A stretch of 39,267 nucleotides of DNA from Bacillota bacterium (GCA_023457325.1 JAEWLX010000045.1:1-39267), one strand, 5' to 3'; counted from the stretch's first letter, positions 5,200 through 23,715 are shown. Numbers and translations are program-made. Notes: generated from the sequence alone by a model not told the origin.

Positions 5200-6210
5200 C
5201 TACTTATCGCCCATCGTCATTGCCATAACAGCTTTGGCGGTGTGAAGACGGTTTTCCGCTTCTTGATAAACAATTGAGTGAGGACCATCGATAACTGAAT
5301 CTTCAACTTCGTTACCACGATCAGCCGGAAGAGCGTGCATGTATTTTACATTCGGGCTGGCGAGTTTAATCATCTCTTCAGTACATTTCCAGCCTTTAAG
5401 CGTTTTGATGTAATCATCGACGACAACGGTTGATTGGTTTTTAACCCAGCTTCCCCAGTTCTTAGGAATAACAACATCCGCATCTTTAAAGGCTTCCTTC
5501 ATATCGTGTGTGATACGGAAGGAACCACCATTTTCTTCAGCGTTTTTCTTTGCCTTTTCGATAGCCCAATCCGGAAGATCATAACCTTCAGGATACGCGA
5601 GAGTTACATCCATGGCGTAGCGTGGGAATAATAAAATTTGTGAAAGAGGAACACTGATTGGTTTTTTGTGACTTTCAGCATACGCCCAAATAATCGAAAT
5701 TTTGAGACGTTTGGTCGTTGGAAATACTTCTTGAATGGTCATTAAATCAGCTAGAGCTTGCATCGGGTGATATAAATCACATTGCAAGTTCATAATCGGG
5801 ACAGTTGAATTAGCAGCCATTTCGCGAATATATTTATTGCCAACGCCATAGTTGCAATAACGGCAAGCGATGCCGTGTCCAAACGAGGACAAGATAACGG
5901 CAGTGTCTTTCGCGCTTTCACCGTGGGAAATTTGCATCATCGAGGTATCAAGAAACGTCGCGTGCCCGCCAAGTTGGGCTAGGCCAGATTCCATCGAGTT
6001 TCTCGTTCTTGTTGATTGTTCAAAGAACATTAAGAAACCAGTTTTATTCTCGAGATATGGCGTAGGAATGTTTTTATAAAATTTGTTTTTCAAATCATAA
6101 GATACTTCTAGTAACTTATCAATTTCTTCCTTTGTCCATTCTTCAAGAGTGATAAAGTGACGACCTTTGAAGAGTGGTTTCATTGTGCGTTTGTAGAATA
6201 GTTTACTCAT
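5200..6210 (-). CDS. ygeW: YgeW-family (knotted) carbamoyltransferase
   Basis: STRTR carbamoyl-phosphate motif, NLQCDLYHPMQALADL, IIWAYAESHKKPISVP, MDVTLAYPEGYDL, GGSFRITHDMKEAFKDADVV and YMHALPAD closely parallel E. coli YgeW as I recall it. It lies directly next to ygeY. At 336 aa it is shorter than E. coli YgeW. Confidence 0.85.
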   Translation of the reverse strand: MSKLFYKRTMKPLFKGRHFITLEEWTKEEIDKLLEVSYDLKNKFYKNIPTPYLENKTGFLMFFEQSTRTRNSMESGLAQLGGHATFLDTSMMQISHGESAKDTAVILSSFGHGIACRYCNYGVGNKYIREMAANSTVPIMNLQCDLYHPMQALADLMTIQEVFPTTKRLKISIIWAYAESHKKPISVPLSQILLFPRYAMDVTLAYPEGYDLPDWAIEKAKKNAEENGGSFRITHDMKEAFKDADVVIPKNWGSWVKNQSTVVVDDYIKTLKGWKCTEEMIKLASPNVKYMHALPADRGNEVEDSVIDGPHSIVYQEAENRLHTAKAVMAMTMGDK

Positions 6211-6221
6211 TAATTTTCTCC

Positions 6222-7439
6222 TTATTTTTTAAGTTGGCTCAAATACATCAATGGTATGGCGGCATAAAGCGCAGCTGCGATAACGAGATCTTCTTTTCTC
6301 GTTTTTTCGTTTGGAGCATGTGCTTCCTTTTCGTCACCGGGCCCAAAGCCGATGCATGGGATGCCATAACGACCCATAATGGTTACACCATTTGTCGAGA
6401 ATGTCCATTTGTCAACAACCGGATCCTTTTTAAATAGACCCTTATAAGCTTCAACTGTGGAAGAACAAATAACATGACTCTCGGGTATAACCCAAGTCGG
6501 GAAATAACACTCGGTTGGGTAAACTAGACCCGTCCATGACGGGCGTTCATACATGTACATTTCAACGGTGGCACCGGCGGCTTTAACCGAGGGTAAAGCG
6601 CGGATTTCATCAAGAGCGCCTAAATGCGTCTCGCCCATCGTCAAACGGCGGTCAATCGAGATCCAACAACTATCAGCAACCGCACAACGTGATGGCGAAG
6701 TATGGAAAATTTCGCTAATCGTCATTGTTCCTTTGCCGAGGAAAGGATCGTCTTTCAACCGTTCATTGAGTTCTTTGATTTCGCCAATAATTGGGCCCAT
6801 CTTATAAATGGCATTATCGCCTCTTTCGGGGGCGCTACCATGACAAGAGATGCCACGTGTCGTTACTTTGATTTCCATTCTTCCGCGATGCCCGCGATAA
6901 ATGCGGCAGGAAGTTGGCTCTGTAATAACGACGAATTCAGGGCGAACTTTATCTTCTTCAATGATGTATTGCCACGGAATTCCGTCACAATCTTCTTCTT
7001 GGACAGTTCCGGTAACAACTAATGTGTAATCATCTTCAAGACCTAAGTCTTTAATAATTTTGCCAGCGTAAACCATCGAAGCCATTCCGCCTTCTTGGTC
7101 GCTTGCGCCACGTCCACCAATGTGAACATCGTCTTCATATCCTTTATAAGGATCAAAGGTCCAGTTGCGAATATCGCCGATGCCAACTGTATCAATATGG
7201 GCGTCCATTCCGATGAGGTGTTTTCCATGGCCAATGTAACCGAGAATATTACCCATCTTGTCGATGACAACGCGGTCGAAACCAACCTTTTCCATCTCTT
7301 CTTTAATGCGATGAATAACTTCTTTTTCCTGGCATGACTCGCTTGGAAGCGAAATCATGTCGCGAAGAAAAGCGGTCATTTCCTTTTTGTAAGATTCAGC
7401 TTTTTTTAAAATTTCACTAAACGGAACGACTTTACTCAT
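6222..7439 (-). CDS. ygeY: YgeY-family M20 peptidase/amidohydrolase ('selenium metabolism-linked hydrolase')
   Basis: 405 aa. Long stretches recall E. coli YgeY ([94 protein letters not shown]). ATGA overlap with the upstream gene. Confidence 0.9.
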
Positions 7440-8803
7440 AATGTTTTTCCTCTCATTTTCTTAATTTTTTCGTCATATTCATGAACCTTGTTATACTCGA
7501 TTTCCCAGAAATCTGGTTTTCTCATCGCATCTAGATATGCTTGGGAATATCCAAACTTCAGCCAATCGCTTTCCTTTTGTTTAAAAAGGCGCTCTTTGAC
7601 TTTTGGTAAACGAGCATCTTCAATATGTTCATCTCTTGCGCCAAGGAAGATATCCTTGTACCAACGTTCCATGACATAGTCGGCTGTCTCAAGCTCGCGC
7701 TTTTCGAGAAGTTCAAGAACGCTTTCATAGCGATCGTAACCATCGGTAGCAATTGTGACAACATTATCGCCAGGACCGAGTCTCAGGTGTTTTGCCATTT
7801 TAATTGCACCTAGAATATTACAAATACCGGAGACACCAAATAGCTCGCGCATTTCTTCAGCGACTTTTTTGTCGACACCATGACGAACTAATACATCCGT
7901 GCCATCATGAATGATTTTAAGACCGCGAACAGACTCATCATCATTAATTAAAGCGATGAAATCAGTCGTTAAAATATTGTGAATGAGAGTACACATCTTG
8001 TCACCGATACCTTCAATGCGATGTTGTCCTCTACCTCCGTTAGTTAATGTTGAACATTCATATGGTTCGAGCGCGGCGATTTTACATTCAGGAAATACTT
8101 TTTTAATCGCATCGCCAGCAGCAAGTGTGCCTGCGCTTCCGGGAGCGGAGGCAAAACAAGCAATCCGACCATTGCCAACACCTTCGACAGCTTCAACACA
8201 ACTATTACCAGTTACGTGGCGATGGAAACGATAGTTTGGCATCAATTCAAACTGGGCTAATGTCCGGTAATTGGGATTCTTTTTTAATTCGTAAGTTCTT
8301 TCAAGAGTCAAAATAACATCCGATTCTGAACCAGGAGTCAAATCTAACTTGGCACCGTAGCGTTGAATGCGATCATAACGCTCTTTTGACATATTGTCAG
8401 GCATGATTACTATCGCATCATATTTCATCAAGTTTGCGATGTAGGAAACACCAATACCAAAGTTTCCGGTTGATGGGCCTAAAATGGTGTGTTTTCCGGG
8501 AATGATGTCGCCATCAATACATCCTTCAATTAGGGTTGAATATGCCGGACCGACTTTGTGCGAACCCGACGGAAATTGTTTTCCTAAAAGCACAACGATG
8601 TTAGCTTCAACACCCGTTAAAGCTTTGGGGAGAACGATTTTGCGAACTTGACCCTTATCATCTTTCCAGTTGATGTTAAAAAGATTGATCGGATCGAGTT
8701 CGTCCGCATCTTTAGCTTTTAAAGCTTGAGCGCGGACTTTGGGATCAATGTGATTGGGATGAAGCATCTCGTCATACGTTGGTCCAAATGGGATTTTTGT
8801 CAT
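7436..8803 (-). CDS. Fold-type-II PLP enzyme, cysteine-synthase/OrtB-like ('PLP-dependent lyase/thiolase'), 455 aa
   Basis: Candidate PLP-lysine region [13 protein letters not shown] and glycine-rich loop [13 protein letters not shown]. It has N- and C-terminal extensions relative to ~310-aa cysteine synthases. The exact subfamily is not resolvable by eye. Confidence 0.7.
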
Positions 8804-8805
8804 TT

Positions 8806-10050
8806 CTAATTGACTCCTTTTTCTTTTAAATACTTATGTAGGGCCTCGATATCAGGCTTTAGAAGGACGGGTTGGCTAATTGCCTTTTGTGCATTAGTCG
8901 GGTCTTTCAAACCATTGCCAGTGACGATAAACGTCACAGATTCATCAGGTTTGATTAAACCAATATTTAGAGCTTCTTGGACACCTGCTAGGGCTGTGAC
9001 CCCTGCTGGTTCTCCAAAAATGCCTTCCAGGCGCCCTAAAAGCGCCATACTCTCTAGTATATACTTATCGCTGACACTTATGAAGTGCCCCCCACTTAAT
9101 TTAATAGCATTCATTGCTTTATTGGGGTTACGAGGAATGCCTACCGCAATCGAATCGGCGATTGTATTCTCATCAGCCTCTTTTAAGTTTTCGTTATTTT
9201 CATAAGCCGTCACAAAGGGGGCGCAGCCCGAACTTTGCACACCGAGAATGCGCGGAATGCGTTCAATCAAGCCCAGTTTTAGCAAGTCATAAAAGCCTTT
9301 GTACACGCCACCGACACTACATCCATCACCAACCGAAATAGCAACCCAATCTGTCGGTTTAAAATCCAACTGTTCAGCAATTTCTAAAGCGACAGTTTTT
9401 TTACCTTCAACAAGATGAGAGTTAATGGCGGCATTACGATTATACCAATGGTATGTTTCGATAGCCTTGCGCGACAAATTGTACGTATCTTTATAATCAC
9501 CATCGACACAAATGACCGTGGCGCCATAAATAGATAATTGGGTTAGTTTGCCAATCGGAGCTCTTTTTGGAACAAAAATAACACTTTTTAAACCCATGTG
9601 GGCTGCTTGACAAGCCAAACTCGAAGCGGCGTTGCCGGTTGAAGAACAGGATATCGTTTTTGCTCCCGCTTCTATCGCTTTTAAAACAGCGACACCGCTG
9701 GCGCGATCTTTTGTTGATCCGCTTGGATTTAAGCCTTCATCTTTAATATAAAGATTCTTAACACCTAAATACTGAGCAAGTCTTTTTGATTTGTATAAAG
9801 GTGTCCAACCAATACGCAACATCTCGTGGATGTGTTCGGAAGGAATACTCATCATCGGGGCATAGCGCCACATCGAATAATCGTGATTGTTTTTGAAATA
9901 ATCAAGGTTGACAGTCTCTTTTAGTTTTTCATAGTCATATTCAACATCGAGAATGCCTTTGTCACCACAATGGGGGCATGTATAAATCGCTTCCTCTGGT
10001 GAATAAGTGCGACCGCATATCGTGCACCGATAGTCTTTGAATTTTTGCAT
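8806..10050 (-). CDS. Threonine-synthase-like fold-type-II PLP enzyme with N-terminal zinc ribbon, 414 aa
   Basis: CTICGRTYSPEEAIYTCPHCG Cys4 ribbon, PLP-lysine motif NPSGSTKDRAS, SSTGNAASSLA loop. The start is set at MQKFKDYRC (ATG 10050, GAAGGTGA SD) because the track start at 10146 would overlap the upstream FAD-subunit gene by 83 nt. Confidence 0.75.
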   Translation of the reverse strand: MQKFKDYRCTICGRTYSPEEAIYTCPHCGDKGILDVEYDYEKLKETVNLDYFKNNHDYSMWRYAPMMSIPSEHIHEMLRIGWTPLYKSKRLAQYLGVKNLYIKDEGLNPSGSTKDRASGVAVLKAIEAGAKTISCSSTGNAASSLACQAAHMGLKSVIFVPKRAPIGKLTQLSIYGATVICVDGDYKDTYNLSRKAIETYHWYNRNAAINSHLVEGKKTVALEIAEQLDFKPTDWVAISVGDGCSVGGVYKGFYDLLKLGLIERIPRILGVQSSGCAPFVTAYENNENLKEADENTIADSIAVGIPRNPNKAMNAIKLSGGHFISVSDKYILESMALLGRLEGIFGEPAGVTALAGVQEALNIGLIKPDESVTFIVTGNGLKDPTNAQKAISQPVLLKPDIEALHKYLKEKGVN

Positions 10051-10063: not shown

Positions 10064-10912
10064 TTATTTAATTCCCTTAATGAACATCGACATAATATTT
10101 GCGCATACTTTCCGCCGATATTGTTTATTCGAACGCTGATCATCAATTGGTGAAATCATTTTATCAGTCTCTTCTAAAATACGCGGCAAATCGCTGATAA
10201 TATCTTCAATTGGGCGGTTTTTGAGTGAATTTTCGAGGGATATGCTTCGAGCGACCATTGCTGCAACTGAGCCAAAAGCCATCCGTATATCTGAAACTAA
10301 TCCAAAGTTGGTAAGATACATTCCCGCAAAGGAAACCTTACTAATTGAGTCGGCTCTTCTTCCGCCGACCTTGACCCACTTATAATTAGTTAGAGGAACG
10401 AGCGGAATAATAATCTCCTTAATTAGTTCATTGCTGTGAAGATCAATGCGGCGAACGCCAATAATGAAATCTTTAACTAATAGGGTTCGCTCTTCTTCAA
10501 TACTTTTCAAAACAACCTTAGCATCGAATAAATATAAAGCGAGAAGGCTATCACCAGCAGGTGAGGCATTGGCGATGTTACCCGCTAATGTAGCGCTATG
10601 GCGAATACCCGGGCTTCCGATTTCCTTGATGATGTCACGAAGAAGATTGGGAACGATTTCACTTCTTAAAATGTCTTCCAGCTTTGTCGTTGCGCCGATA
10701 TGAACAAACTTCTTGTCTTCACTTAACTTAATATAATTAAGTTCATCGACATTTGCCATATAAAGAACATCCTTCGTAAATTTAGGAGGCGTGCCTGCCG
10801 AAGATCTTTTTTGAATCATTAAATCAGTTCCACCCGCCATAATGTGAAGTGGACCTTCATTTAAATGTTCTAGTGCTTCCTGGAGATTATTTGGAATAAT
10901 ATGTTTTACCAT
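10064..10912 (-). CDS. Molybdenum hydroxylase (xanthine dehydrogenase family) FAD-binding subunit, set 1
   Basis: 282 aa with AGGTDL FAD motif and TLAGNIANASPAGD. CoxM/XdhB-like, adjacent to the 2Fe-2S and Mo subunits. Confidence 0.85.
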   Translation of the reverse strand: MVKHIIPNNLQEALEHLNEGPLHIMAGGTDLMIQKRSSAGTPPKFTKDVLYMANVDELNYIKLSEDKKFVHIGATTKLEDILRSEIVPNLLRDIIKEIGSPGIRHSATLAGNIANASPAGDSLLALYLFDAKVVLKSIEEERTLLVKDFIIGVRRIDLHSNELIKEIIIPLVPLTNYKWVKVGGRRADSISKVSFAGMYLTNFGLVSDIRMAFGSVAAMVARSISLENSLKNRPIEDIISDLPRILEETDKMISPIDDQRSNKQYRRKVCANIMSMFIKGIK

Positions 10913-11379
10913 AATCCTTCTCCTAACTTAGCAGCCAACTTAACTGCCTTGATTATCATGTTGTAACCAGTGCATCGACACAGATTACCAGAAAGACCTA
11001 TGCGAATTTCTTCATCGGTTGGATGAGGGTTTTGCGATAAGAGACTCTCGGCGGCCATAATCATGCCCGGGGTACAAATTCCACATTGCGACCCGCCCTC
11101 AAAATGCAAAGCATCTTTTAATATTTGATAACGTTTCGTGAGGGCTAAGCCTTCGATTGTTAAAATCGTTTTGCAATTGGCGTTGGCGAGGGGGAAACAG
11201 CAACTATTAACAACTTTCCCGTTTACTAAAACGGAACACGCACCACATTCGCCTTCCCCACATCCTTCTTTTGTGCCGGTTAAATGAAAATGGTCGCGAA
11301 GGACATCGAGCAAGCGCAAACTTGGATCAAGATCCATTTCCACTTTTTGATTGTTTAATACAAATTTAATCTTGTTCAT
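10906..11379 (-). CDS. Molybdenum hydroxylase [2Fe-2S] subunit, set 1
   Basis: CGEGECGACSV (plant-type cluster) plus QCGICTPG...NLCRCTGY (second cluster). 157 aa. Confidence 0.9.
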   Translation of the reverse strand: MNKIKFVLNNQKVEMDLDPSLRLLDVLRDHFHLTGTKEGCGEGECGACSVLVNGKVVNSCCFPLANANCKTILTIEGLALTKRYQILKDALHFEGGSQCGICTPGMIMAAESLLSQNPHPTDEEIRIGLSGNLCRCTGYNMIIKAVKLAAKLGEGLW

Positions 11380-13465
11380 CTTTTAATAACTCCATGATGT
11401 ATTCTGGTGTGGCAGGAATTCGATTCACTTTGCGTTTAATCGCGTTTTCTATTGCTAAGGCAACAGCTGGGGCTCCACCAACTAGTGTTAGTTCTCCTAC
11501 TCCTTTAGCGCCATACGGACCATAGGGGAAAGGATTATCCATTATTATCGTTTCCATATTTGGCATGTCCATTGAAGTCGGAATAATATAATCCGTCAAA
11601 TTCTTTTGTCTGAGTTTGCCTTTTTCGTGGCGCATTATTTCTAAATAGCCGTAGGCAACTCCTTGAGTAATTCCTCCATCTGCTTGGCCGATAACCATTC
11701 TTTCATCGATGGCTTTACCAACATCATAAACACTCCAAATGCCTTTCAGTTCGACTTCATAAGTAATGGGCGAAACTTCGACTTCAACTATGTTGACACC
11801 CCATGAATAGGCTGGATAGGCATCGCCGTGAAGAGCGTGTTCATCCCATTTAATAAAATCGGGCTGTTGATATTTTTCAATTATTTCCTGGCATTGGCCA
11901 GACTTCCATTCATCTTTTAATTTTTTGGCGGCTCTTGCTAATAATCCGCCAACAATCATCGTGGTTCTAGAGGCAACAGTCGGACCAGAATCAGGTGCAA
12001 AGTCGGTATCAGGATTATCAAAGATAACTTGATCATTATCAACGTCTAAAGTCATGGCGACAATGCGTTTGAGTGAGGTTTTAGCCCCTTGCCCCATATC
12101 AACGGCAGCGATATAAACGTGGACGATATCTTTTTCGTCTTTTACTAATCTTACGCGTGACTTAATGTGCGTGCTTTCGCCATCGCCAGTAAATCCACAG
12201 CCATGGAGAAACCAGCTCATGCCAATGCCTTTAAATACTCCTGGTTTAGCGTATTCTTTTGTCTTGCGATGATAATCGGATATCTCCGTTGCTTTGGCTA
12301 TCATTTTATCCATAATAATCGGATCCCGGAAAGTACCGCTTGTCGATGTCTTATCGCCTTGCTTAACCAAATGATTAATTCTGAATTGGTAAGGATCGAC
12401 ACCTATGTCTTTGGCAATGTGATTCATAAACATCTCAATGGCATAAATCATCTGCGGTGATCCAAAACCACGGAAAGCTCCGGTCGGTACAGTGTTGGTA
12501 ATATAGACGTCGCCACTGACATCGAGATTATCAATCGTGTAGGCGTTCGTAACCGCAAGCATTGAGCGGGACAAAACAACACCACTTAGCCCAACATATG
12601 CTCCGCCATCAAGGGAGACATGGGCTTTAATGGCAAGGATATGATTATTGTCATCGAGCATAGCTTCCATCGTTATTTCTGATGGATGACGCTTTGTCGT
12701 AACGAGCATATCTTCTTCGCGCTCAAAAATCATTTTGATTGGTTTTTTAATTTTGACAACAGCTGTCGCTAGCTGGCATGCCGTTGTAGAGGGGAATTCT
12801 TCTTTGCCGCCAAAGGCGCCGCCAACGGCAGGTTGCAAAACCCGCACTTTGTCCTCGGGATAACCCAAAGTATTAATAACGGCATTCTTAATATAATAAG
12901 GGCACTGCATTGAACCAATAAGTGTAACTTTACCGCCTTCATCCAAATAAGCAAGCATCCCCTGCGGTTCAATGTATGCTTGTTCTTGATAGCCAGTATA
13001 ATAAGTTTCTTTGATTGTTCGCTTTGCCTTTTTAGAAGCTTTTAAATAGTCGCCTTTTGCAAACGATTTATGAACAAAACTGTTCACGTAATCAAATACA
13101 GCTTCTTCTTCCTGATAATCGATTTTAATATTTGCTATGATGTCATCGATAACCTTCTTATCGGGTCCGACAACTAGTGCGATTGGTTCGCCAATATAAT
13201 TGACCTTGTCGACAGCAAAGACGGGCCAGTCAGCAAAGATCATTTTGACATAGTTTTCTTTGATAACATCTCGGTGGTCGACATAAAAGTATCCATCAGG
13301 CATTTTTGGAATCTGAATCGAAAGGATTTTGCCTCTCGCAATTGATGAACGGACTGTTTTGGCAAATAACATATCGTCGAAAACGATGTCCGAAACATAT
13401 TTTGCTTGTCCAGAACACTTTTCTTCGTGGTCGACTTTTGGTGTTGATTTCTTCGGATCGAACAT
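11366..13465 (-). CDS. Molybdenum hydroxylase molybdopterin-binding subunit, set 1 (xanthine-dehydrogenase-like active-site residues)
   Basis: 699 aa. It carries GGAFGGKEE (Glu after GGK as in bovine XDH Glu802), AFRGFGSPQ (Arg880 equivalent) and AKGVGELTL (catalytic Glu). Confidence 0.9.
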   Translation of the reverse strand: MFDPKKSTPKVDHEEKCSGQAKYVSDIVFDDMLFAKTVRSSIARGKILSIQIPKMPDGYFYVDHRDVIKENYVKMIFADWPVFAVDKVNYIGEPIALVVGPDKKVIDDIIANIKIDYQEEEAVFDYVNSFVHKSFAKGDYLKASKKAKRTIKETYYTGYQEQAYIEPQGMLAYLDEGGKVTLIGSMQCPYYIKNAVINTLGYPEDKVRVLQPAVGGAFGGKEEFPSTTACQLATAVVKIKKPIKMIFEREEDMLVTTKRHPSEITMEAMLDDNNHILAIKAHVSLDGGAYVGLSGVVLSRSMLAVTNAYTIDNLDVSGDVYITNTVPTGAFRGFGSPQMIYAIEMFMNHIAKDIGVDPYQFRINHLVKQGDKTSTSGTFRDPIIMDKMIAKATEISDYHRKTKEYAKPGVFKGIGMSWFLHGCGFTGDGESTHIKSRVRLVKDEKDIVHVYIAAVDMGQGAKTSLKRIVAMTLDVDNDQVIFDNPDTDFAPDSGPTVASRTTMIVGGLLARAAKKLKDEWKSGQCQEIIEKYQQPDFIKWDEHALHGDAYPAYSWGVNIVEVEVSPITYEVELKGIWSVYDVGKAIDERMVIGQADGGITQGVAYGYLEIMRHEKGKLRQKNLTDYIIPTSMDMPNMETIIMDNPFPYGPYGAKGVGELTLVGGAPAVALAIENAIKRKVNRIPATPEYIMELLKDEQD

Positions 13466-13468: not shown

Positions 13469-14557
13469 TTACTCCTTTTCTTCCATGACAATTGCCCCAG
13501 TCGGACACTTCACTGGACAAAGTCCACACTGGAAGCATTTATTCGGATCAAAGGTTATGACGTCCTTCATTTCAATGGCAAAATATGGGCATATTTTTAC
13601 ACACAACATACAGCGTATACATTTTTCAGGAATTAGGTAAGGAGTATTCCCTTCATATTTAACTTTGTTAACAAGTTGTGTGTCGATAACTTCTTGAATC
13701 GAAGAGAAACCATTTCTTTCTAAGGCCTTAGGAAGGTCTTCGATAATTTTGGCATATAACTGCTTGCCTTTAAGCAAGGCCGCCGAAAGCATTTGCACGC
13801 CACTAGCGCCGGCTAATAAAAACTCGATTACATCATCGGCAGTGGCAATTCCACCAACACCAATCACCGTTAATGATGGTTCTGCTTGTTTGATTGTATA
13901 AACAGTAGCTAAAGCTAGATTCTTGATAACTGGTCCGCTTGTCCACACAAAACCTTTCTCATTTCCGTAAATGATACGACGCTTTTTGATATCGATTTTC
14001 ATCGTCGGTCCAAGCGAATTGACAGCTACTACTCCATTTGCCCCGGCTTCCTTAATGGCTTTTGCAAAACCGGAAGGATCAGGAATGTGCGGGCTTATTT
14101 TCATGTAGAGTGGTTTTTTGGTATGTTTACGAATCGTTTTGACAGTTTCGGCAATGACAGAGTGATCGGTACCCACATAGTGAGTGGAAACTTCAAAGGC
14201 ATCAGCAAAGCGATCAAGCAAAGGAATCAATACTTCCATGTCTTCTTTGCTATAACCAACGCTGACAATTAAGGGGCGACCATCATTGACGGAGACAAAT
14301 TCCGGCAAGAATTCCTCAATCCACTTTTCTTTGTTGTATTCACTCCAAAGTTCGCTGTTCATAATATATTCACGGTCGCCATAAATACAAGGGCGAGGAA
14401 TATGAGCGTCTTTAGTCGAAATCGTCTTTGTGACAATTGCTCCACAGCCTGCGTCTTTCATAAAAACCAAGCGTTCAGTGTCACCGACGAGAGGCCCTGC
14501 TGCGGGCATGAGGGGATTAGCAAGTACTAATCCATCGAATTTGGTTGTTAAATCCAT
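13469..14557 (-). CDS. PreA-like dihydroorotate/dihydropyrimidine dehydrogenase-family flavoprotein with C-terminal 2x[4Fe-4S] ferredoxin domain
   Basis: DHOD-type TIM barrel motifs (NPLMPAAGPL, GAIVTKTIS, GIGGIATADD). The C-terminus has two CxxCxxCxxxCP motifs (CIRCMLCVKICP, CFQCGLCPVKCP). Confidence 0.8.
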   Translation of the reverse strand: MDLTTKFDGLVLANPLMPAAGPLVGDTERLVFMKDAGCGAIVTKTISTKDAHIPRPCIYGDREYIMNSELWSEYNKEKWIEEFLPEFVSVNDGRPLIVSVGYSKEDMEVLIPLLDRFADAFEVSTHYVGTDHSVIAETVKTIRKHTKKPLYMKISPHIPDPSGFAKAIKEAGANGVVAVNSLGPTMKIDIKKRRIIYGNEKGFVWTSGPVIKNLALATVYTIKQAEPSLTVIGVGGIATADDVIEFLLAGASGVQMLSAALLKGKQLYAKIIEDLPKALERNGFSSIQEVIDTQLVNKVKYEGNTPYLIPEKCIRCMLCVKICPYFAIEMKDVITFDPNKCFQCGLCPVKCPTGAIVMEEKE

Positions 14558-15861
14558 TATTTTTCTCCTTTGATTCTATTCCATAACGAATTGGCAATTT
14601 CTGTGCTCTTTTCAAGTTCCAAGATTAGCTTCTTATTCGTCAGTTCGTAATTTTTTACGACTTGTTCACCAGCGACGAAGACGTCACTTGGTTTAAATGA
14701 GTGCATCATCGCATAAAAAAGATGACCAAGAGCATTGCTCTTATCAAGATTCGTCGGAGCAAAATAAGGCACTAATAGCATATCGGCTTCGTAACCCGCT
14801 TCAATGCGCCCGAGCTTGACACCAAGTTGACGAGAGACATAGTCATAGCCATTATTAATCATCGCCAATAATTGACCTAGGCCAAAAGCAGTAGGTTTCT
14901 TATGCAACAAATGGGCCGAGTATAAGATGTTCATATATTCATTAGCAATACCACTTGAGAGTCCATCGTTACCAATCATGACTGGAATGCCTGATGTGCT
15001 GAATTTATTAATGTCTGGCAAACCGACTGCATTATTCATGTTTGAAGTAACGTTGACAACAATCGAGGCCTTACGTTTTTTAATAATATCCAGTTCCTTG
15101 TCATTAACGTGAACGCAATGAACGAGTAGACTATCTTCATTAATTAATCCGTGGCGGTCCAAACGTTCAACGACGCGCTCTTGATATTTAGCCAAAGAGT
15201 CTTCTTCATCCATTTCGCTTTCAGCGACATGAATATGAATCGGTGCGTTATGCAAATTCTTGCTTACTTTTTTAAGTGTTTCTTCCGATAAGCTCATCGA
15301 GGCATGAAGGCCGAAAAGACCAGCTGTAAAGGGTGTCTTAAATTGTTTAATAAAATTAGCGTTTTCGTTAATTGATTCTTCGACATTAAAGCGGTCACTT
15401 ACTTCAAAAGCAAATAAGGCACGGACAGAGGAGACATCACAAACCGCCTTTTTAAGCGAGGCAAGCGAACCAGTTATTTCTTTGCCACTCGCATGATGGT
15501 CGATAATGGTGGTTACTCCGTTACGAAGAAATTCCGAAGCGGCGACTAGACCACTATAATAGGAAGTCTCGTTATCAATATGGCGATCGATTTTCCACCA
15601 CATCTGATCAAGAATCTCCTGAAAGTTTTTCGGGTTAAAAGGAAGGGCTAAGCCCCGGGCAAAGGTTGAGTAAATATGCGTGTGGGCACAAACAAGACCA
15701 GGGATGAGGAAAGCACCTTGCCCATCGATGATTTGATAGCCATCATCGACAAAGTCATTCATATGTCCAACTTGTAAGACAAGATGATCGAAAACGACAA
15801 ATCCATTATCAATAAACTCCGCAAAATCATAAATTTTAACGTTAATTATGGCTTTTTTCAT
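14557..15861 (-). CDS. ssnA: SsnA-family amidohydrolase (chlorohydrolase/aminohydrolase superfamily)
   Basis: CAHTHIYSTFARG, LDQMWWKIDRHIDNETSYYSGLVAASEFLRNGVTTIIDHHAS, HIHVAES and NMNNAVG parallel E. coli SsnA as recalled. 1-nt stop/start overlap with the next gene. Confidence 0.85.
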   Translation of the reverse strand: MKKAIINVKIYDFAEFIDNGFVVFDHLVLQVGHMNDFVDDGYQIIDGQGAFLIPGLVCAHTHIYSTFARGLALPFNPKNFQEILDQMWWKIDRHIDNETSYYSGLVAASEFLRNGVTTIIDHHASGKEITGSLASLKKAVCDVSSVRALFAFEVSDRFNVEESINENANFIKQFKTPFTAGLFGLHASMSLSEETLKKVSKNLHNAPIHIHVAESEMDEEDSLAKYQERVVERLDRHGLINEDSLLVHCVHVNDKELDIIKKRKASIVVNVTSNMNNAVGLPDINKFSTSGIPVMIGNDGLSSGIANEYMNILYSAHLLHKKPTAFGLGQLLAMINNGYDYVSRQLGVKLGRIEAGYEADMLLVPYFAPTNLDKSNALGHLFYAMMHSFKPSDVFVAGEQVVKNYELTNKKLILELEKSTEIANSLWNRIKGEK

Positions 15862-17165
15862 TCGATATCACGTCCTTTAATCCATTTGCCTTGTCCGCCC
15901 TGATAAACACGATTTCGAATAACAAAATGGCCACGAACCATGGTTGAGATAACTTGTCCATGTGAAGGCTGGCCGATATAAAGTGAATAATCGGCATGGC
16001 CGTGTTGATCAAGGATTAGACTTCGTGCTTCAGGTTTAAAAATAACTAGGTCGGCGTTATTACCAACTTTAATCTCGCCTTTTCCATCTAAACCTTGAAT
16101 CCGAGCAATATTACTTGTCATCTTATTAATTACAGAATCACCGAGATGATGACGCATAATTGTAAATGAGTGTTCAATCCCGCCAATACCTAACGGCATT
16201 TCGAAAAGCATTTTGCCTTTTTTGTCGGCGATATTAAAAGCACAATGGTCGGTGCCAATCGTATCGATGTGCTTTTGGTTCGTAAATAGTAATTTACGGG
16301 AAACAAAGCTTCTCAAAGGTGGGGCAAAAGAATATAAATAACCGTCTTCGCGTTCCAAAGCATCGTGGGTAAAAGTGAAATATTGAGGACAACTCTCGAT
16401 GAAGAAACGCTTATTGAGAATATCTCCATAATTTTCAATAAGGGCTTCAAGAGTGTGGCCGTCACTAAGATGAACCATGTAAAGCTTCCCGCCATGCTGG
16501 CGAACAAGTTCGGCGAGTTTTAGCGCTTCGCTTTTTTCGGCTTCTGATGAACGGCTGATTGGTAAATCTTGATAAGTAAAGTCCTTCTTCACAACTATCA
16601 GGTCATCGTTTTCAACATGGGCTAATAAAAGAAATTTATATTTCTTTGATAATTCAAGGAGCTTAATAATATCTTTTTCATAAGTCCGGCGGCCAGAGTC
16701 AGAATAAGTCGTGAACAACTTTAATGTATGTATATCTAAACTTTTCATTTTTTTGACGAATTCTTCTAAATCGCCCGTCGGATTTTTAATACAGGCATGA
16801 AGACGAAAATCAATGACGGACTTACTCGCTAACGCAATGCGTTTATCATAGGCAAGTTGCAGTTCATCGGCGTTACTAGCAGGATCAAGAAAATCGACAA
16901 TCGAAGTGACTCCGCCATAGGCGGCAGCCACCGTCCCGTGATAGAAATCATCCACGGATTTATATTTACCTAAATCGAGTTCAAAGTGTACGTGAGGATC
17001 AATGATACCCGGTAGAACTTCAAGTCCTTCGGCATCGACAACTTGTGAGGCATCCAAAAAGTCATCGCTTATTAAGGCAATTTTTCCTTTTTTGATATAG
17101 AGATTGTGTGTTTCCCAGTGACCATTGATGTAGAGTAGGCCGTTCATAATTGCATAATCGTACAT
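15858..17165 (-). CDS. hyuA: Cyclic amidohydrolase, hydantoinase/dihydropyrimidinase family (HyuA-like)
   Basis: DPHVHF metal motif, TLKLFTTY (candidate carbamylated Lys), LLAHVEND, GTDHCAF. 435 aa. ATGA-type overlap with ssnA. Confidence 0.8.
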   Translation of the reverse strand: MYDYAIMNGLLYINGHWETHNLYIKKGKIALISDDFLDASQVVDAEGLEVLPGIIDPHVHFELDLGKYKSVDDFYHGTVAAAYGGVTSIVDFLDPASNADELQLAYDKRIALASKSVIDFRLHACIKNPTGDLEEFVKKMKSLDIHTLKLFTTYSDSGRRTYEKDIIKLLELSKKYKFLLLAHVENDDLIVVKKDFTYQDLPISRSSEAEKSEALKLAELVRQHGGKLYMVHLSDGHTLEALIENYGDILNKRFFIESCPQYFTFTHDALEREDGYLYSFAPPLRSFVSRKLLFTNQKHIDTIGTDHCAFNIADKKGKMLFEMPLGIGGIEHSFTIMRHHLGDSVINKMTSNIARIQGLDGKGEIKVGNNADLVIFKPEARSLILDQHGHADYSLYIGQPSHGQVISTMVRGHFVIRNRVYQGGQGKWIKGRDIE

Positions 17166-17169
17166 GATT

Positions 17170-17655
17170 CTACTCCTCTCCTGGAACTTTTATAAGTTCA
17201 TAATCGCTAATAGCGAAGTGTGTGGTAACGGGTTTAACAAGATCTTCGCGGACAGCAATGACAAGGTCGAGTCCGCTTACTAAGACTTTTTTGAGGATGT
17301 TATGGTAGCCTCCTCCCATAATTTCAAGAACGCCAACTTCATCAAGATAAATAGGCATTACTTTCTTTTCGATGAATTCATCAACAACGCTTTCAAGCAA
17401 GGACAATAAGTTTAAATTCAAGTAGAAGGGTCCGAACTTACTGCTATGAGTGAAATCTTGATGGTAATGGTTTTGATAAATCATCCAAGGAATGGTGTTG
17501 CTATTGCTGAGGCGAAGCATAATGTAACCGTAAACTTCCTTGCCCTTCATCTTTTTAATGGCGGCAAAGCCGTCACCAATTAGATTCTTTCGATACTCAT
17601 TAATGAGAGTCGTGGTTTTACCGGCATTAATTTTTCCAGCAATGATTTTAACCAT
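17170..17655 (-). CDS. P-loop NTPase, THEP1/NTPase_1-like (161 aa)
   Basis: Walker A GKINAGKTT and Walker B IYLDEVGVLE. The start is set at MVKIIAGK (ATG 17655) because the longer track ORF would overlap the upstream membrane-protein gene. Confidence 0.6.
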   Translation of the reverse strand: MVKIIAGKINAGKTTTLINEYRKNLIGDGFAAIKKMKGKEVYGYIMLRLSNSNTIPWMIYQNHYHQDFTHSSKFGPFYLNLNLLSLLESVVDEFIEKKVMPIYLDEVGVLEIMGGGYHNILKKVLVSGLDLVIAVREDLVKPVTTHFAISDYELIKVPGEE

Positions 17656-18397: not shown

Positions 18398-18409
18398 AAC
18401 AATACTCCT

Positions 18410-20719
18410 TTATTTTCCTTTGTTGAGCCCCTGAAATATTTTTTCAGGAGTAACCGGCAATTTATTGATTCGCACGCCGGTTGCGTTTGCGACTGCGTTA
18501 GCAATTGCAGCTGGAGGCGTGTCAATACCGATTTCACCAACCGACTTCGCGCCATACGGTCCGCTTTCCTCAAAACTTTCCGCGAACTCAGTCGTTAGTT
18601 TCTTAACGTCGAGCATCGATGGAATTTTATAGTAGAGGAAGCTGTTGCTATTTAGCTTTCCGCGGTTGCTGTATTTTACGTCTTCAAAACAAGCCATGCC
18701 TAAACCTTGTACAATTCCACCTTCAACTTGTCCTTTGGCGAGCATTGGATTAATCGTTACACCGCAGTCGACGACACTGACATAATGAAGAATGTCATAT
18801 TCGCCAGTCTCGGTGTCGAGTTCAATTTCGACATATCCCGCCATAAATGGCGGAGGTGATTTATGACCAACATAGCTTTCAGTCGCTGTCAGTTGATGTT
18901 GATTTTCATTGTAATAAAGGCGGTTAGCCAAATCAGAAAGGGTTAAGACCTTGTCTTTGCTAGTAAATTTTTCACCGTCAAAAACAACTTCTTCTTCTTT
19001 TGAATTTAAATAGTTAGCCGCTTCTTTAATTAGCATGCTTTTCATCTTCAAGGCCGCCTTTAATGCGGCATTGCCAGAAACATAGGTTGTGCTTGAAGCA
19101 TAGGCACCGACATCAAATGGAGTTAAATCGGTATCAGATGAATAAATAATTACTTTATCAACAGAGGTCATTAAAGCCTCGGCAACGATTTGCGTGATGA
19201 CGGTATCACTTCCCTGGCCGATATCAGTTGCGCCAACAGTAAGGTTATAGAATCCGTCGTCGTTGAGTTTAATCGTAGCAGCAGCCATATCGATATAAGG
19301 AATGCCACTTCCTTGCATCGCAATCGCCATGCCAACAGCGCGAACTTTATTTGGACCAACTTTAACAAATGGATATTTATCCTTCCAGCCAATTAATTCC
19401 GCACCACGATCGAGGCAATAACGAAGTTTACACGTATCCATATCCATGGCTGTGCCTTCTGTGCCCTCGCCCATGATAGCAAAGATTGGACTTGTCTCGC
19501 CTTCTTCCATCATATTTTTACGACGGAGTTCAAGCGGATCAATATTTAATCTTTTGGCGAGAACGTCAATGGCTGATTCGAGAGCAAAGTTGCCTTGAAT
19601 CGCTCCATATCCGCGATAGGCACCGGCTGAAACGTGGTTAGTGTAAACGACACGCCCACCAAAGCGAACGGCATCAACTTTATTATAAAGTGGCAAGACC
19701 TTTGAACCAGTAATCATGAAGACGGTTAAAGCGTGTTCTCCATAAGCTCCGGTATCAGACAAACTATAACAATCAATGGCCTTTAAAGTACCGTCTTTCA
19801 TCGCGCCTAAACGCATTCTAATTCGCATAGGATGACGGGTGTAGGAAGATTCAAAAACTTCCTGACGTGAGTAAATCATCTTTGATGGCTTTTTCGTTTT
19901 TAAAGTAACAAGCGAGACAAAGAATTCACCATGAATAGCCTGTTTGCCACCAAAACCACCGCCCACTCTTGGCTTGATAACGCGAATCTTGCTAATCGGC
20001 ATATCAAGTGTTTGTGAAATAATCCTTCTAACATGATATGGCGTTTGCGTGGCCGTATAAATGACGAGCCGATTATGATAATCGAGTCTTGCATTAGCGG
20101 TGTGAGGCTCTAGCATCGCATGAGCTTGGGCCTGCGTGTAATAAGTTTCGTCAATTACGACATCACATTTAGATAAGGCATCTTCGACATCGCCGACGTG
20201 CATGTCATAGGCGGCAGCGACGTTTTTCTTGGGTTCAAAACCGATTGGAAACATCTCGTGAATGCCGTCCTCAGGATGAATGATATTTTTGTTTTCATAG
20301 GCAGTCTCGTAATCCAAGACAGGTTCAAGAACTTCGTATTCGACTTCAATAAGTTTTAAGGCTTGATCGGCGATAGATTCATTAATGGCTGCCACGCAAG
20401 CGACTTCGTCACCAACGTAACGAACATACTCATCTAAAATAAACTTATCGTGGGGAGATGGTTCGGGATAACCCTGCCCAGCTCTCGTAAAAGATTTGCG
20501 AGGTACATCGTGATGGGTTAAAACGACTTCCACACCAGTTAAGTCTTTAGCCTTTGATACATCAATTTTCTTAATCTTAGCAAAAGCATGTGGACTTCTT
20601 AAAACCTTGACAATTAAAGAATTGGCCTCAGCAAGATCATCCGTAAAGGCCGGACGACCCATCATGATTCCTTTACCGTCAACTGAAGGCGTTTTTTGAT
20701 TTACAACTTTTGTTTTCAT
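18410..20719 (-). CDS. Molybdenum hydroxylase molybdopterin-binding subunit, set 2 (XdhD/XdhA-like)
   Basis: 769 aa. It carries GGGFGGKQA (Gln in place of the XDH Glu802 equivalent), AYRGYGAIQ (Arg retained) and AKSVGEIGI (catalytic Glu). Confidence 0.9.
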   Translation of the reverse strand: MKTKVVNQKTPSVDGKGIMMGRPAFTDDLAEANSLIVKVLRSPHAFAKIKKIDVSKAKDLTGVEVVLTHHDVPRKSFTRAGQGYPEPSPHDKFILDEYVRYVGDEVACVAAINESIADQALKLIEVEYEVLEPVLDYETAYENKNIIHPEDGIHEMFPIGFEPKKNVAAAYDMHVGDVEDALSKCDVVIDETYYTQAQAHAMLEPHTANARLDYHNRLVIYTATQTPYHVRRIISQTLDMPISKIRVIKPRVGGGFGGKQAIHGEFFVSLVTLKTKKPSKMIYSRQEVFESSYTRHPMRIRMRLGAMKDGTLKAIDCYSLSDTGAYGEHALTVFMITGSKVLPLYNKVDAVRFGGRVVYTNHVSAGAYRGYGAIQGNFALESAIDVLAKRLNIDPLELRRKNMMEEGETSPIFAIMGEGTEGTAMDMDTCKLRYCLDRGAELIGWKDKYPFVKVGPNKVRAVGMAIAMQGSGIPYIDMAAATIKLNDDGFYNLTVGATDIGQGSDTVITQIVAEALMTSVDKVIIYSSDTDLTPFDVGAYASSTTYVSGNAALKAALKMKSMLIKEAANYLNSKEEEVVFDGEKFTSKDKVLTLSDLANRLYYNENQHQLTATESYVGHKSPPPFMAGYVEIELDTETGEYDILHYVSVVDCGVTINPMLAKGQVEGGIVQGLGMACFEDVKYSNRGKLNSNSFLYYKIPSMLDVKKLTTEFAESFEESGPYGAKSVGEIGIDTPPAAIANAVANATGVRINKLPVTPEKIFQGLNKGK

Positions 20720-21168
20720 TTATGAGCCTCCAAATATTTTTTAATCGCTTTAAACTGAGATTGATAACCCGAGCAGCGGCATAAATTGCCAGCGACAAAG
20801 TGCTTAATATCCTCATCAGTCGGATTGTTAAGTTCTTTTCTTAGGGCGAGGATGGTAAGAGCAAGACCAGTATTACAAAAACCGCATTGATCAGCGCCTT
20901 CGTCCGCAAAGAAATCACTAATCTCATCAACTTCATCTTGTAATGCTTCCACGGTTGTGACATTTCTTCCTTCCACTCTCGCGGACAAAAATGAACAGGA
21001 CAATATTGGGCGTCCGTCTAATAAGACGGTGCACGCTCCGCAGGCTGCTTCGTCACAAGCTTTTTTGACTGATAAAACGGAATGGCTTCTTAAAGTATCA
21101 GCTAGATATTCTCCGGGAGTGATGTCGTAGCTAACATAACGACCATTTAGATTAAAGTTAACTTTCAT
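20716..21168 (-). CDS. Molybdenum hydroxylase [2Fe-2S] subunit, set 2
   Basis: CDEAACGACTV, QCGFCNTG and NLCRCSGY. 150 aa. 4-nt overlap with the Mo subunit gene. Confidence 0.9.
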   Translation of the reverse strand: MKVNFNLNGRYVSYDITPGEYLADTLRSHSVLSVKKACDEAACGACTVLLDGRPILSCSFLSARVEGRNVTTVEALQDEVDEISDFFADEGADQCGFCNTGLALTILALRKELNNPTDEDIKHFVAGNLCRCSGYQSQFKAIKKYLEAHK

Positions 21169-21962
21169 TATTTGCTAACCTCCTCAAGACCACGTTTGAC
21201 ATAGGCTTTTGCCAAAGCTTTGCGATACTCAGCGCTGGCAGCACCTGTCGAAGCGTAAAGAAGTTCTTCAGAGGCAAGTTCAGCGGCCTTATTTATAAGT
21301 TCATTAGAAAGATTCTTGGCATTATTAACTACTTCCATTGATTTAGATGCTAATGAGGCGACAGAAGGACGACTGCCTATCGCTATGCGATACTTGCCAT
21401 CAATATTAGCGATGGCCACATTAACGACAGCAAAATCAAGAGCGGTTGTTTTGACTTTTTTAAAGAAGGAAGGACCTTGGCTTTTTTTAATGACAATATG
21501 TGTCAAAATATCGCTCAAACGTCCTTTAAAGCTTAAAAAATCGTTAAGCGTCATTTCCTTGTGCGGATAAAAGACGAGTTTTGTCTCAAGTGCCAATAAG
21601 GGAGTAATAATATCAGAAAAGGGAAATCTACCAGCGACCGAACCACCGATTGTCGCACTATTGCGAAAGGCAACACCCATGATTTGGCTTACCGCTTCAA
21701 TCAAGATGCCTCCTTGAATATTTTTAAGTAACGGACTCAGTTCAAAATCTCTAAGGCTGACCATAGCTCCAACTTCGACTGTGTCACCAAGATCTTTGAT
21801 GGTATCAAGTCCAAGAGCGCTTAAATCAACTAAGGTGTTTGCAGAAGAAGTTGACTTCTTAAGCCAAAGACCACCGCCCAACAAAACGTTTTTTGCATCT
21901 TGAAGCAAGATTTGGTGAGCTTCTTCAAGGGTCGCGGGTCGTAAGTAGCGATTTGCTTCCAT
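21168..21962 (-). CDS. Molybdenum hydroxylase FAD-binding subunit, set 2 (YgfM-like short form)
   Basis: 264 aa. FRNSATIGGSVAGRFPFSDIITPLLALETKLVF resembles the CoxM/YgfM FAD domain. The usual AGGT(D/N)L motif is degenerate (LGGGLWL). Confidence 0.8.
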   Translation of the reverse strand: MEANRYLRPATLEEAHQILLQDAKNVLLGGGLWLKKSTSSANTLVDLSALGLDTIKDLGDTVEVGAMVSLRDFELSPLLKNIQGGILIEAVSQIMGVAFRNSATIGGSVAGRFPFSDIITPLLALETKLVFYPHKEMTLNDFLSFKGRLSDILTHIVIKKSQGPSFFKKVKTTALDFAVVNVAIANIDGKYRIAIGSRPSVASLASKSMEVVNNAKNLSNELINKAAELASEELLYASTGAASAEYRKALAKAYVKRGLEEVSK

Positions 21963-21981
21963 GTTTGTTTCCTTTCTTTAT

Positions 21982-22530
21982 TTATAATTTTTGATAGTCA
22001 CGAGGGGTATCGATGTCCATCAAAATTTGTGAATCCTCTGTCTTGATTATTTCATAATCGTGTCGATTGCGAAATAGTTTCAGGTTCGAAGTTACTGGCT
22101 CATTAAGCAATTCATCTTTAATAGAATGCTTAATAAAGAGTGGGTGACCAGTTCGATTTTGATAGACTGGGACACGCATTTCTTTGCTCCCCAAAAGCAA
22201 TTTTTGATACGTGTCGCCGCTTACAAAGGGACAATCTCCCGGAAGAATAAAAAAATCGCCCTTCGTTTTACGAACACCGGCTTGAACGGAACTAAACATT
22301 CCTTTCGAATAGTCGGAATTATAAACGATGGTGACCTTTGAATATGATTTTAGGGCCTCTTTAACTTCTTCGTGATAGTGCCCAGTCACAACGATAACTT
22401 CATCAACAAAGGGGAGCATTCCTTCAACGGCATGGGCAATTAAAAACCTTCCCTTGTGAGTTAATAGCATTTTATTCGTCTCGGCTCGGCTGGAGTAGCC
22501 GGCCGCTAGGATAATCCCTTGGGTCATCAA
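21982..22530 (-). CDS. mocA: Molybdenum cofactor cytidylyltransferase (MocA/YgfJ-like nucleotidyltransferase)
   Basis: N-terminal GIILAAGYSSR nucleotidyltransferase motif and PGDCPF. 182 aa. It is the first gene of the Mo-enzyme operon, with AAGGAG SD. Confidence 0.8.
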   Translation of the reverse strand: MMTQGIILAAGYSSRAETNKMLLTHKGRFLIAHAVEGMLPFVDEVIVVTGHYHEEVKEALKSYSKVTIVYNSDYSKGMFSSVQAGVRKTKGDFFILPGDCPFVSGDTYQKLLLGSKEMRVPVYQNRTGHPLFIKHSIKDELLNEPVTSNLKLFRNRHDYEIIKTEDSQILMDIDTPRDYQKL

Positions 22531-22794: not shown

Positions 22795-23715
22795 ATGAGT
22801 AGATATGTCGTCTCACTAGGGGGCAACGCCCTCGGAAACAATGCCGAAGAACAAAAAAGACTATTAATCAATGTAGCCACGCCAATTGTGGCTTTGATTA
22901 AAGCTGGACATGAAGTAATTATTGTCCACGGAAATGGGCCACAAGTCGGTATGATTAATCTGGCTTTCGCTGAATCGAAATCGACTCCGGATATGCCTTT
23001 TCCAGAATGTGGAGCAATGAGCCAAGGCTACATTGGTTTTCACTTGCAAAACGCGATATTTAACGAACTTGCAAAGCAAAACGTCGATAAGCACGTGGCA
23101 ACAATTGTCACTCAAGTCGTTGTCGACGCAAATGATCCTCTCTTTTTAAACCCTACGAAACCAGTCGGTGCTTTTTATAGTCAAGAAGAAGCAGAAATCA
23201 TCGCTTTGGAAAAAGGCTATACGATGAAAGAAGATAGTGGGCGTGGCTATCGCCGCGTTGTCGCTTCTCCCTTACCAATTGATGTCGTAGAAAAGGACAT
23301 GATACTCAGTTTACTTAAAGACAAACATGTTGTTATTTGTGCCGGCGGCGGAGGTATTCCCGTCATTAGAAAAGGACAGCATTTGGAAGGAATCGCCGCT
23401 GTCATCGATAAAGACTATGCCAGTGCGAAAGTTGCCGCTCTTGTCGATGCCGATTATTTAGTCATTTTAACTGCTGTTGATAATGCCTATATTAACTATA
23501 AAAAACCAGGCGAAAAAAGACTTGAAAAAGTCACAATGAGTGAAATTGAAAAATACGCTGAAGAGGGTTTCTTTGCCAAAGGAAGTATGTATCCAAAAGT
23601 TCAAGCGTGTTTAATGTTATTAAAAGCTAAAAAAGGTAAAACAGCTATTATCACGTCTCTTGAAAAAGCACAGGAAGCCTTTGTTGAAAAGGTCGGTACA
23701 ATCATTAAATCTTAG
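22795..23715 (+). CDS. yqeA: Carbamate kinase (YqeA/ArcC type)
   Basis: SLGGNALG, HGNGPQVGMINLAF, LNPTKPVG, EDSGRGYRRVVASP, GGGGIPV, AVIDKDYASA and FAKGSMYPKV are classic carbamate kinase motifs, very close to E. coli YqeA as recalled. Confidence 0.92.
   Translation: MSRYVVSLGGNALGNNAEEQKRLLINVATPIVALIKAGHEVIIVHGNGPQVGMINLAFAESKSTPDMPFPECGAMSQGYIGFHLQNAIFNELAKQNVDKHVATIVTQVVVDANDPLFLNPTKPVGAFYSQEEAEIIALEKGYTMKEDSGRGYRRVVASPLPIDVVEKDMILSLLKDKHVVICAGGGGIPVIRKGQHLEGIAAVIDKDYASAKVAALVDADYLVILTAVDNAYINYKKPGEKRLEKVTMSEIEKYAEEGFFAKGSMYPKVQACLMLLKAKKGKTAIITSLEKAQEAFVEKVGTIIKS

Follow-up and report, generated by a model that had tools for sequence, protein, structure and literature searches.

A conserved pair of ThrC-fold and CysK-fold enzymes beside ygeY in reductive urate clusters: a possible stand-in for YgeX

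A 39 kb stretch of DNA from a Bacillota bacterium (GCA_023457325.1, JAEWLX010000045.1:1-39267), analysed as a whole and called the window here, carries two adjacent genes for pyridoxal 5'-phosphate (PLP) enzymes of fold type II, both on the minus strand and directly upstream of ygeY. The first (8806..10050) encodes a protein of 414 amino acids (aa) with the threonine synthase (ThrC) fold and an N-terminal Cys4 zinc ribbon, referred to throughout as P1, which matches PF00291 with 254 bits. The second (7436..8803) encodes P2, a 455-aa protein with the cysteine synthase (CysK) fold (PF00291, 85 bits). P1 begins at an ATG preceded by AAGGTG and ends at a TAG (8808-8806), followed by AA and then the ATG of P2, which leaves a gap of 2 nt at this junction (8801..8808, minus strand). 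The stop codon of P2 in turn overlaps the start codon of ygeY in the tetranucleotide ATGA (7436..7439, minus strand). An earlier note on this DNA had described the two enzymes, their sizes and positions, the Cys4 and GSTKDR motifs and both junctions, and all of these were confirmed directly from the sequence. The spacing is also conserved, the gap from P1 to P2 measuring -8 to +4 nt in 70 of 103 related loci and that from P2 to YgeY -4 to +3 nt in 66 of 84. Since the tight spacing is kept across related loci it is not due to chance, and P1 and P2 are, judged by their gene arrangement, a co-translated module whose coupling is conserved.

The two genes lie in a reductive urate (2,8-dioxopurine) cluster in which every published enzyme of the pathway is matched except YgeX. 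The pathway leads from urate to 2,8-dioxopurine, continues through ring reduction and two ring openings, and ends in the conversion of (R)-2,3-diureidopropanoate into diaminopropionate and of this into pyruvate by YgeX, its intermediates being (R)-configured (10.1101/2025.04.24.650524; PMC12507026). A tblastn search with Escherichia coli YgeX over the 39 kb window gave no match. Immediately downstream of P2 is the gene for YgeY, the M20 ureido-hydrolase of the pathway (6222..7439, minus strand), which is 73% identical to E. coli YgeY and scores 698 bits against TIGR03526 (cut-off 321.5). It is followed by a gene for a 336-aa catabolic carbamoyltransferase (5200..6210, minus strand). The two PLP enzymes had been placed upstream of a ygeY-ygeW pair in the earlier note; this is correct for ygeY, but not for ygeW. 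The carbamoyltransferase is instead closest to ornithine carbamoyltransferase (OTC), with 264.5 bits against the OTC model (cut-off 280.85). Its 209 and 193 bits against the two YgeW models leave it short of their cut-offs (453 and 500), and it shares 39% identity with E. coli YgeW; its nearest relatives are the carbamoyltransferases for ornithine and putrescine. Since albizziin corresponds to citrulline, and diaminopropionate to ornithine, as their C3 analogues, and since the enzyme is nearest to OTC, it may act by phosphorolysis on the 3-ureido group of albizziin, a point relevant to the order in which the two ureido groups are cleaved.

P1 resembles threonine synthases of the short bacterial type and of the zinc-ribbon PRK08197 type in fold, in sequence (33-37% identity), in its PLP lysine and in domain layout, including the N-terminal zinc-ribbon region, which is covered by PRK08197. 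The ribbon cysteines C9, C12, C25 and C28 (9967..10026, minus strand) lie in the motifs CTICG (residues 9-13) and CPHCG (residues 25-29), in a region with a weak match to the rubredoxin-like family PF21349. All four are invariant in the 66 members of the P1 family alignment (66/66), as is the PLP-binding lysine K114 in GSTKDR (9709..9711, minus strand), which aligns with K61 of Thermus thermophilus ThrC. The best sequence match in the PDB is the threonine synthase 2zsj (222 bits). An AlphaFold2 model of P1, with a predicted local distance difference test (pLDDT) score of 82.8, has threonine synthases as its top Foldseek matches at a target-normalised TM-score (TMt) of 0.83; only ThrC and CapA2 were returned, which confirms the fold but gives no functional insight. 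Among the NCBIfam threonine synthase models, P1 remains below the cut-offs of PRK08197 (273 bits, cut-off 303) and PRK05638 (216 bits, cut-off 421), but exceeds that of TIGR00260, the thrC model (205 bits, cut-off 167), and annotation pipelines therefore name it threonine synthase.

This label is probably a systematic misannotation of the P1 family. P1 was aligned to four solved bacterial threonine synthases, with the T. thermophilus numbering checked against K61. The residues T88, S155, R160 and N188, which we take to be those that bind the phosphate of O-phosphohomoserine, are kept in all four solved enzymes. At these positions P1 has A141, A208, L213 and D242, and the replacements hold for the whole family: Ala in 66/66, Ala in 65/66, Leu or Met in 66/66 and Asp in 66/66. 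Because the ThrC phosphate-site residues are replaced family-wide, P1 is, on the evidence of its sequence, not a housekeeping threonine synthase. It also differs from ThrC in its genomic context, which is purine catabolism and not hom-thrB. A cationic beta-substituent would fit the acidic D242 in what was once the phosphate pocket. Antisense open reading frames (ORFs) of more than 100 aa occur on the plus strand over P1 (8810-9205) and over ygeY (6702-7022), both of them probably spurious ORFs that shadow the coding strand.

P2 is cysteine synthase-like with terminal extensions, as the earlier note had it: CysK is its nearest relative, from which it differs by about 55 additional aa at the N-terminus and about 95 at the C-terminus, making it about 140 aa longer. 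Its PLP-binding lysine K83 in SGSHKVG (8555..8557, minus strand) aligns with the Schiff-base lysine of CysK and is invariant in the P2 alignment (A1), which includes relatives of 26-33% identity. The CysK catalytic set is otherwise kept as well, comprising S111-T-G-N114, Q184, G222-S-A-G-T226 and the serine facing N1 of the cofactor (S325). P2 thus shares with CysK, CysM and their relatives (CBS, SbnA, DcsD and H2S-producing lyases) the fold, Schiff-base lysine, carboxylate loop, glutamine, PLP-phosphate loop and N1 serine, that is, the machinery which makes aminoacrylate from a beta-substituted alanine. In contrast, its identity to these enzymes is only about 25-30%, it has SHKVG where CysK has SVKDR and GIGDKM where CysK has GIGAGF, and its extensions and catabolic context set it further apart. 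The best PDB sequence match is CysK (115 bits over residues 65-361) and Foldseek returned only CysK and CBS, again confirming the fold without functional insight. The family is compact and very slowly evolving, with more than 6000 database matches of which the top 120 are 76-100% identical to P2, and relatives at E<=1e-30 collapse into only 107 clusters when grouped at 50% identity. Across 160 sequences, 150 of the 455 positions of P2 are invariant.

The database of the JGI labels P2 cysteine synthase. Scores against the CysK models are, however, far below their cut-offs (133 bits against 351 for TIGR01139; 132 against 344 for TIGR01136), as is that against the CysM model (85 bits, cut-off 394), and in one P2 locus (L139) a canonical 319-aa cysK together with cysE sits 5 kb from P2. 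Because of the low CysK score and this separate cysK-cysE pair, P2 is, as far as sequence comparison can tell, not the housekeeping CysK. It is hardly credible, then, that P1 and P2 are an ordinary threonine synthase and an ordinary cysteine synthase found here by chance. The TIGR00260 score of P1 (205 against 167) and the database names of the two families are what such a view would draw on. It is contradicted by the loss of the ThrC phosphate site throughout the P1 family, by the 133 bits and additional length of P2, by the occurrence of canonical cysK-cysE in the same locus as P2, and by synteny of the pair with purine clusters across several phyla. The separation of both enzymes from housekeeping ThrC and CysK, which the earlier note's idea requires, stands on these same grounds.

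Relatives of P2 occur in at least 573 species genomes in a one-genome-per-species scan, with hosts that include Erysipelotrichaceae, Izemoplasmatales, Acholeplasmataceae, Clostridia, Negativicutes and Acidobacteriota. The 80 best carriers, all with a protein at least 70% identical to P2, belong to Erysipelotrichaceae, Izemoplasmatales, Acholeplasmataceae, Desulfitobacteriaceae, Moorella, Negativicutes and Terracidiphilus. These loci and 80 more from a metagenome scan make up a set of 160, all mapped with the window proteins and E. coli proteins in a view of about 10 kb to each side of P2; context was counted only where both flanks reach 5 kb or more, which is the case in 79 loci. Among these 79 well-flanked loci, P1 is found in 71, at least one purine-pathway gene in 75, YgeY together with a carbamoyltransferase in 59, and YgeX in only 3. 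YgeX was not seen in 56 of the 59 that hold YgeY and the carbamoyltransferase. The order P1-P2-YgeY-carbamoyltransferase recurs across several phyla. Co-occurrence with ygeY and a carbamoyltransferase gene, which the earlier note wished to see counted, holds in 59 of the 79 P2 loci, although the partner in the window is not a bona fide YgeW. P1 and P2 are also found alongside true YgeW and YgfK types (L053, L055, L059, L126 and L129). In Moorella-type clusters the pair is accompanied by a selenium-dependent xanthine dehydrogenase (XDH), a hydantoinase and another M20 hydrolase, with the carbamoyltransferase not in view, and in clusters that lack YgeY, P2 often follows directly after another M20 hydrolase.

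Unsupervised clustering of all ORFs in 80 loci recovered, besides the pathway genes, an adenine deaminase in 27 loci and a CMP-type deaminase in 23, and no further recurrent partner gene of an unknown kind. These deaminases fit with purine catabolism. The former is a 571-aa adenine-deaminase-like amidohydrolase encoded between the FAD subunit of XDH and P1 in Izemoplasmatales-type loci (7044-8759 in L025, and 26 others), and the latter a 160-aa CMP/dCMP-type deaminase that recurs downstream in 23 loci.

We tentatively favour a role for P1 and P2 as a coupled PLP lyase module at the tail of the pathway, where they would dispose of the C3 diamino acid in the stead of YgeX. YgeY and the carbamoyltransferase would release a free alpha-amino acid, either (R)-2,3-diaminopropionate or its 3-ureido precursor albizziin, the latter being the acid released if the 2-ureido group goes first. 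P1 and P2 would then turn this amino acid into pyruvate and ammonia by beta-elimination, doing the job of YgeX, and removal of the amine would pull forward the thermodynamically uphill formation of carbamoyl phosphate. P1 would be the likelier diaminopropionate-binding lyase, because its phosphate pocket, rebuilt as Ala/Ala/Leu/Asp, suits a cationic beta-substituent. P2, whose aminoacrylate-forming residues are all intact by comparison with CysK, might act on the same amino acid or on its precursor, as a second beta-lyase or by beta-replacement, or might serve as an obligate partner subunit.

Two known systems offer a comparison. YgeX (DpaL) is likewise a fold-type-II PLP enzyme encoded beside ygeY and a carbamoyltransferase gene, and it converts a C3 diamino acid into pyruvate and ammonia, the job proposed here for P1/P2. 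However, P1 and P2 are not its orthologues, as the two DpaL models (cut-offs 276 and 532 bits) give P1 only 66 and 54 bits and P2 only 27 and 24; they are two proteins where YgeX is one, and they can co-occur with it. E. coli YgeX has TTDGNH, with D120, where P1 has SSTGNA and P2 has PSTGNF. Asp120 in the TDGNH loop is presumably the second catalytic base of YgeX. The other comparison is with the arginine deiminase pathway's tail, in which an OTC-like carbamoyltransferase and carbamate kinase harvest ATP from a ureido group and removal of the amine pulls the reaction. The carbamate kinase of the window is divergently oriented (22795..23715, plus strand), 55% identical to E. coli YqeA, and scores 380 bits against TIGR00746 (cut-off 358). 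The difference from arginine deiminase is that the amine here would be diaminopropionate, the C3 analogue of ornithine, and would be destroyed by PLP lyases instead of being exported.

Several observations weigh against this role. First, P2, RidA and a true YgeX are encoded in a row within one operon in three loci of the Desulfitobacteriaceae type, from Desulfitobacterium (L047, identical to L092), Desulfosporosinus (L045) and a metagenome (L094). The YgeX proteins of L045 and L047 share 51-53% identity with the E. coli enzyme, and that of L094 is 69% identical to the L047 copy. Because YgeX coexists with the pair in these loci, P1/P2 are not strictly an alternative to it. Second, ThrC-like and P2-like genes are also paired in loci devoid of purine genes, and a few copies of P2 stand alone. 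Third, YgeX performs the step alone, whereas two enzymes would be engaged here, and ygeX could lie elsewhere in the carrier genomes, about 10 kb per side having been viewed. Finally, the model of P2 has a pLDDT of 70.7 overall and less than 50 for residues 103-188, the substrate-binding subdomain. The replacement of YgeX suggested in the earlier note is thus supported by the YgeX-less window, by 56 of the 59 loci and by conservation of the pair, but is qualified by the three loci with YgeX and by the non-purine pairs.

P1 is present in two of the YgeX-bearing loci (L047 and L094) and absent from the third (L045). The simple scheme in which YgeX replaces P1, suggested by L045, was dropped, as L047/L092 and L094 hold P1, P2 and YgeX together. 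RidA, an enamine/imine deaminase, is encoded between P2 and YgeX wherever both co-occur (11564-11941 in L047, 11479-11904 in L045 and about 3030 in L094).

These loci bring in a different explanation, on balance unlikely but deserving of serious attention, in which P1 and P2 contribute an extra step or branch beyond the E. coli pathway and the deaminating lyase is YgeX or an enzyme encoded elsewhere. Such a step could be beta-replacement that makes another amino acid, for instance serine or cysteine, out of diaminopropionate or albizziin, or epimerisation of a D-intermediate before an L-specific lyase. The presence of P2 beside YgeX and RidA in three loci, and its retention in L045 without P1, would be expected under this explanation. 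CysK-fold enzymes are also typically beta-replacement catalysts, and P2 retains their machinery; the intermediates of the pathway are (R)-configured; and the pairing of ThrC-like and P2-like genes in non-purine contexts suggests a generic two-step conversion. However, YgeX is not found within about 10 kb in 56 of 59 loci with YgeY and the carbamoyltransferase, while published clusters hold ygeX inside, and no recurrent gene would supply a co-substrate. The residue before the substrate-loop Gly-Asn, which is Thr in both P1 and P2, also argues against it. In fold-type-II racemases and DpaL we take this position to be Ser or Asp.

The pairs outside purine clusters take several forms. One P2 relative (P0243, 44% identical to P2) is divergent from a gene for a 390-aa ThrC-like protein, itself 32% identical to P1. 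Another (P0397, also 44% identical) overlaps the gene for a 504-aa zinc-ribbon ThrC-like protein and has a TRAP transporter adjoining. Two frame-shifted high-GC ORFs from actinobacteria run from P2-like into ThrC-like sequence. Fusion (Rosetta-stone) evidence for the pair was rejected, the long P2-like proteins being a tandem CysK artefact, an ABC ATPase or such frame-shifted high-GC ORFs. More distant relatives (34% identity) are found on plasmids of Rhizobium (L090, NZ_CP024312.1) and Bosea (L091, NZ_CP017148.1), next to TauE/SafE sulfite exporters, M20 peptidases, amino-acid transporters and RidA. Such surroundings would be expected for a catabolic beta-lyase, and these plasmid proteins may form an unrecognised subfamily of sulfo-amino-acid lyases. 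A P2 relative in Cloacimonadota adjoins a 401-aa, YgeW-sized carbamoyltransferase. Given these plasmid and Cloacimonadota contexts and the non-purine pairings, gene neighbourhood suggests that the P1/P2-type pair is a general catabolic module for beta-substituted alanines released by amidohydrolases.

A more specific version, which we consider rather unlikely, would make P1 and P2 an obligate hetero-complex, that is, a two-component fold-type-II PLP lyase for D-configured beta-substituted alanines. Its substrates would include D-diaminopropionate and D-albizziin arising from D-hydantoinase and M20 carbamoylase chemistry. It would serve anaerobic purine degradation and, in diverged forms, other catabolic loci in which TRAP or ABC transporters, M20 peptidases and sulfite exporters are encoded.

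On the other side of P1 lies a set of genes for an XDH-type molybdenum hydroxylase, with Mo, 2Fe-2S and FAD subunits (set 1; 10064..13465, minus strand; assigned by Pfam and NCBIfam matches). A second XDH-type set followed by MocA occupies 18410..22530 on the same strand (XDH set 18410-21962) and is 37% identical to XdhD. The cluster thus has two separate Mo/FeS/FAD sets, of which set 1 is the more divergent. A role for P1 and P2 in maturation of these neighbouring hydroxylases, for example by drawing on cysteine or selenocysteine to provide the Mo cofactor with sulfur or selenium, is nevertheless improbable. It would account for P2 adjoining XDH genes in most loci, for its position after yqeC-mocA and a yqeB-like gene in Moorella-type loci, and for the window, where tblastn searches for yqeB and yqeC (accessory genes of selenium-dependent Mo hydroxylases) gave no match. 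The tightest and best-kept linkage, however, is with YgeY and the carbamoyltransferase, and distant P2 relatives have transporters, M20 peptidases, RidA and sulfite exporters, and not Mo cofactor genes, as their neighbours. To our knowledge the Mo cofactor sulfurases are fold-type-I desulfurases, which also counts against this role.

The earlier comparison of P2 with OrtB raises one more alternative, that of a PLP thiolase with CoA-dependent C-C cleavage, which we regard as very improbable. P2 is similar to OrtB in size (about 455-500 aa, with the PALP fold and extensions), and one distant P2 relative adjoins CoA-transferase subunits. Yet the C3 intermediate has no gamma-keto group for retro-Claisen cleavage, no close or distant relative of P2 bears the OrtB name, the clusters of distant relatives having generic names throughout, neither ortA nor ornithine-fermentation genes appear as neighbours in the 160 loci, and the best matches of P2 are CysK and CBS.

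With a lyase module acting in the stead of YgeX as the favoured interpretation, P1/P2 are a conserved, uncharacterised two-enzyme tail of a known pathway; the pathway itself has already been published. In the literature searched, the pair is not mentioned, be it in the pathway papers, in the commentary or in the older comparative genomic papers. In one survey, genes were coloured as YgeX by PF00291 alone (PMC12507026), and P1 and P2 would therefore have been counted as YgeX. Other surveys required a YgeX match, or four of seven genes. Surveys that score YgeX or PF00291 would therefore either miss the variant or silently count P1/P2 as YgeX. This matters as the reductive urate pathway, worked out in 2025, is being developed for probiotics against gout and hyperuricaemia and for microbiome surveys, and the variant touches the last carbon-releasing step over a large part of the distribution of the pathway. 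The function of P1/P2, once worked out, could settle the order of ureido cleavage and the stereochemistry, extend the ThrC and CysK folds by a new reaction specificity, and correct the systematic misannotation of these families as threonine synthase and cysteine synthase.

The remaining pathway genes of the window are on the minus strand and follow one another between the two XDH-type sets. A UacX-type reductase with a dihydroorotate dehydrogenase-like domain and a 2x[4Fe-4S] domain (13469..14557; PF01180 and Fer4) fits the definition of UacX given in PMC12507026. It is followed by an SsnA-like amidohydrolase (14557..15861), which is 31% identical to E. coli SsnA and scores 364 bits against NF005540 (below the cut-off of 444), and by a HyuA-like cyclic amidohydrolase (15858..17165), which is 30% identical to E. 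coli HyuA and scores 213 bits against the D-hydantoinase model. SsnA, HyuA and the carbamoyltransferase are below curated cut-offs, yet syntenic across the 160 loci. Between HyuA and XDH set 2 (17170-18397, minus strand) are genes for an NTPase_1-like P-loop protein of 191 aa and an unannotated membrane protein of 229 aa, and this pair travels with the cluster in seven other loci (L002, L003, L031, L038, L135, L136 and L163).

Just upstream of the cluster (23784-28648, minus strand) are genes for a SerA-like dehydrogenase, a SerC-like aminotransferase, a DUF1015 protein and glutamate dehydrogenase. The product of this SerA/SerC-like block would be O-phosphoserine, which some ThrC-like and CysK-like enzymes use as a substrate. 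In another locus (L025, Mycoplasmatota zrk2), a lipoate-protein ligase and a complete glycine cleavage system (T, H, P-alpha and P-beta) are encoded at 15543-20864, a few kb downstream of the purine cluster and with unrelated genes between.

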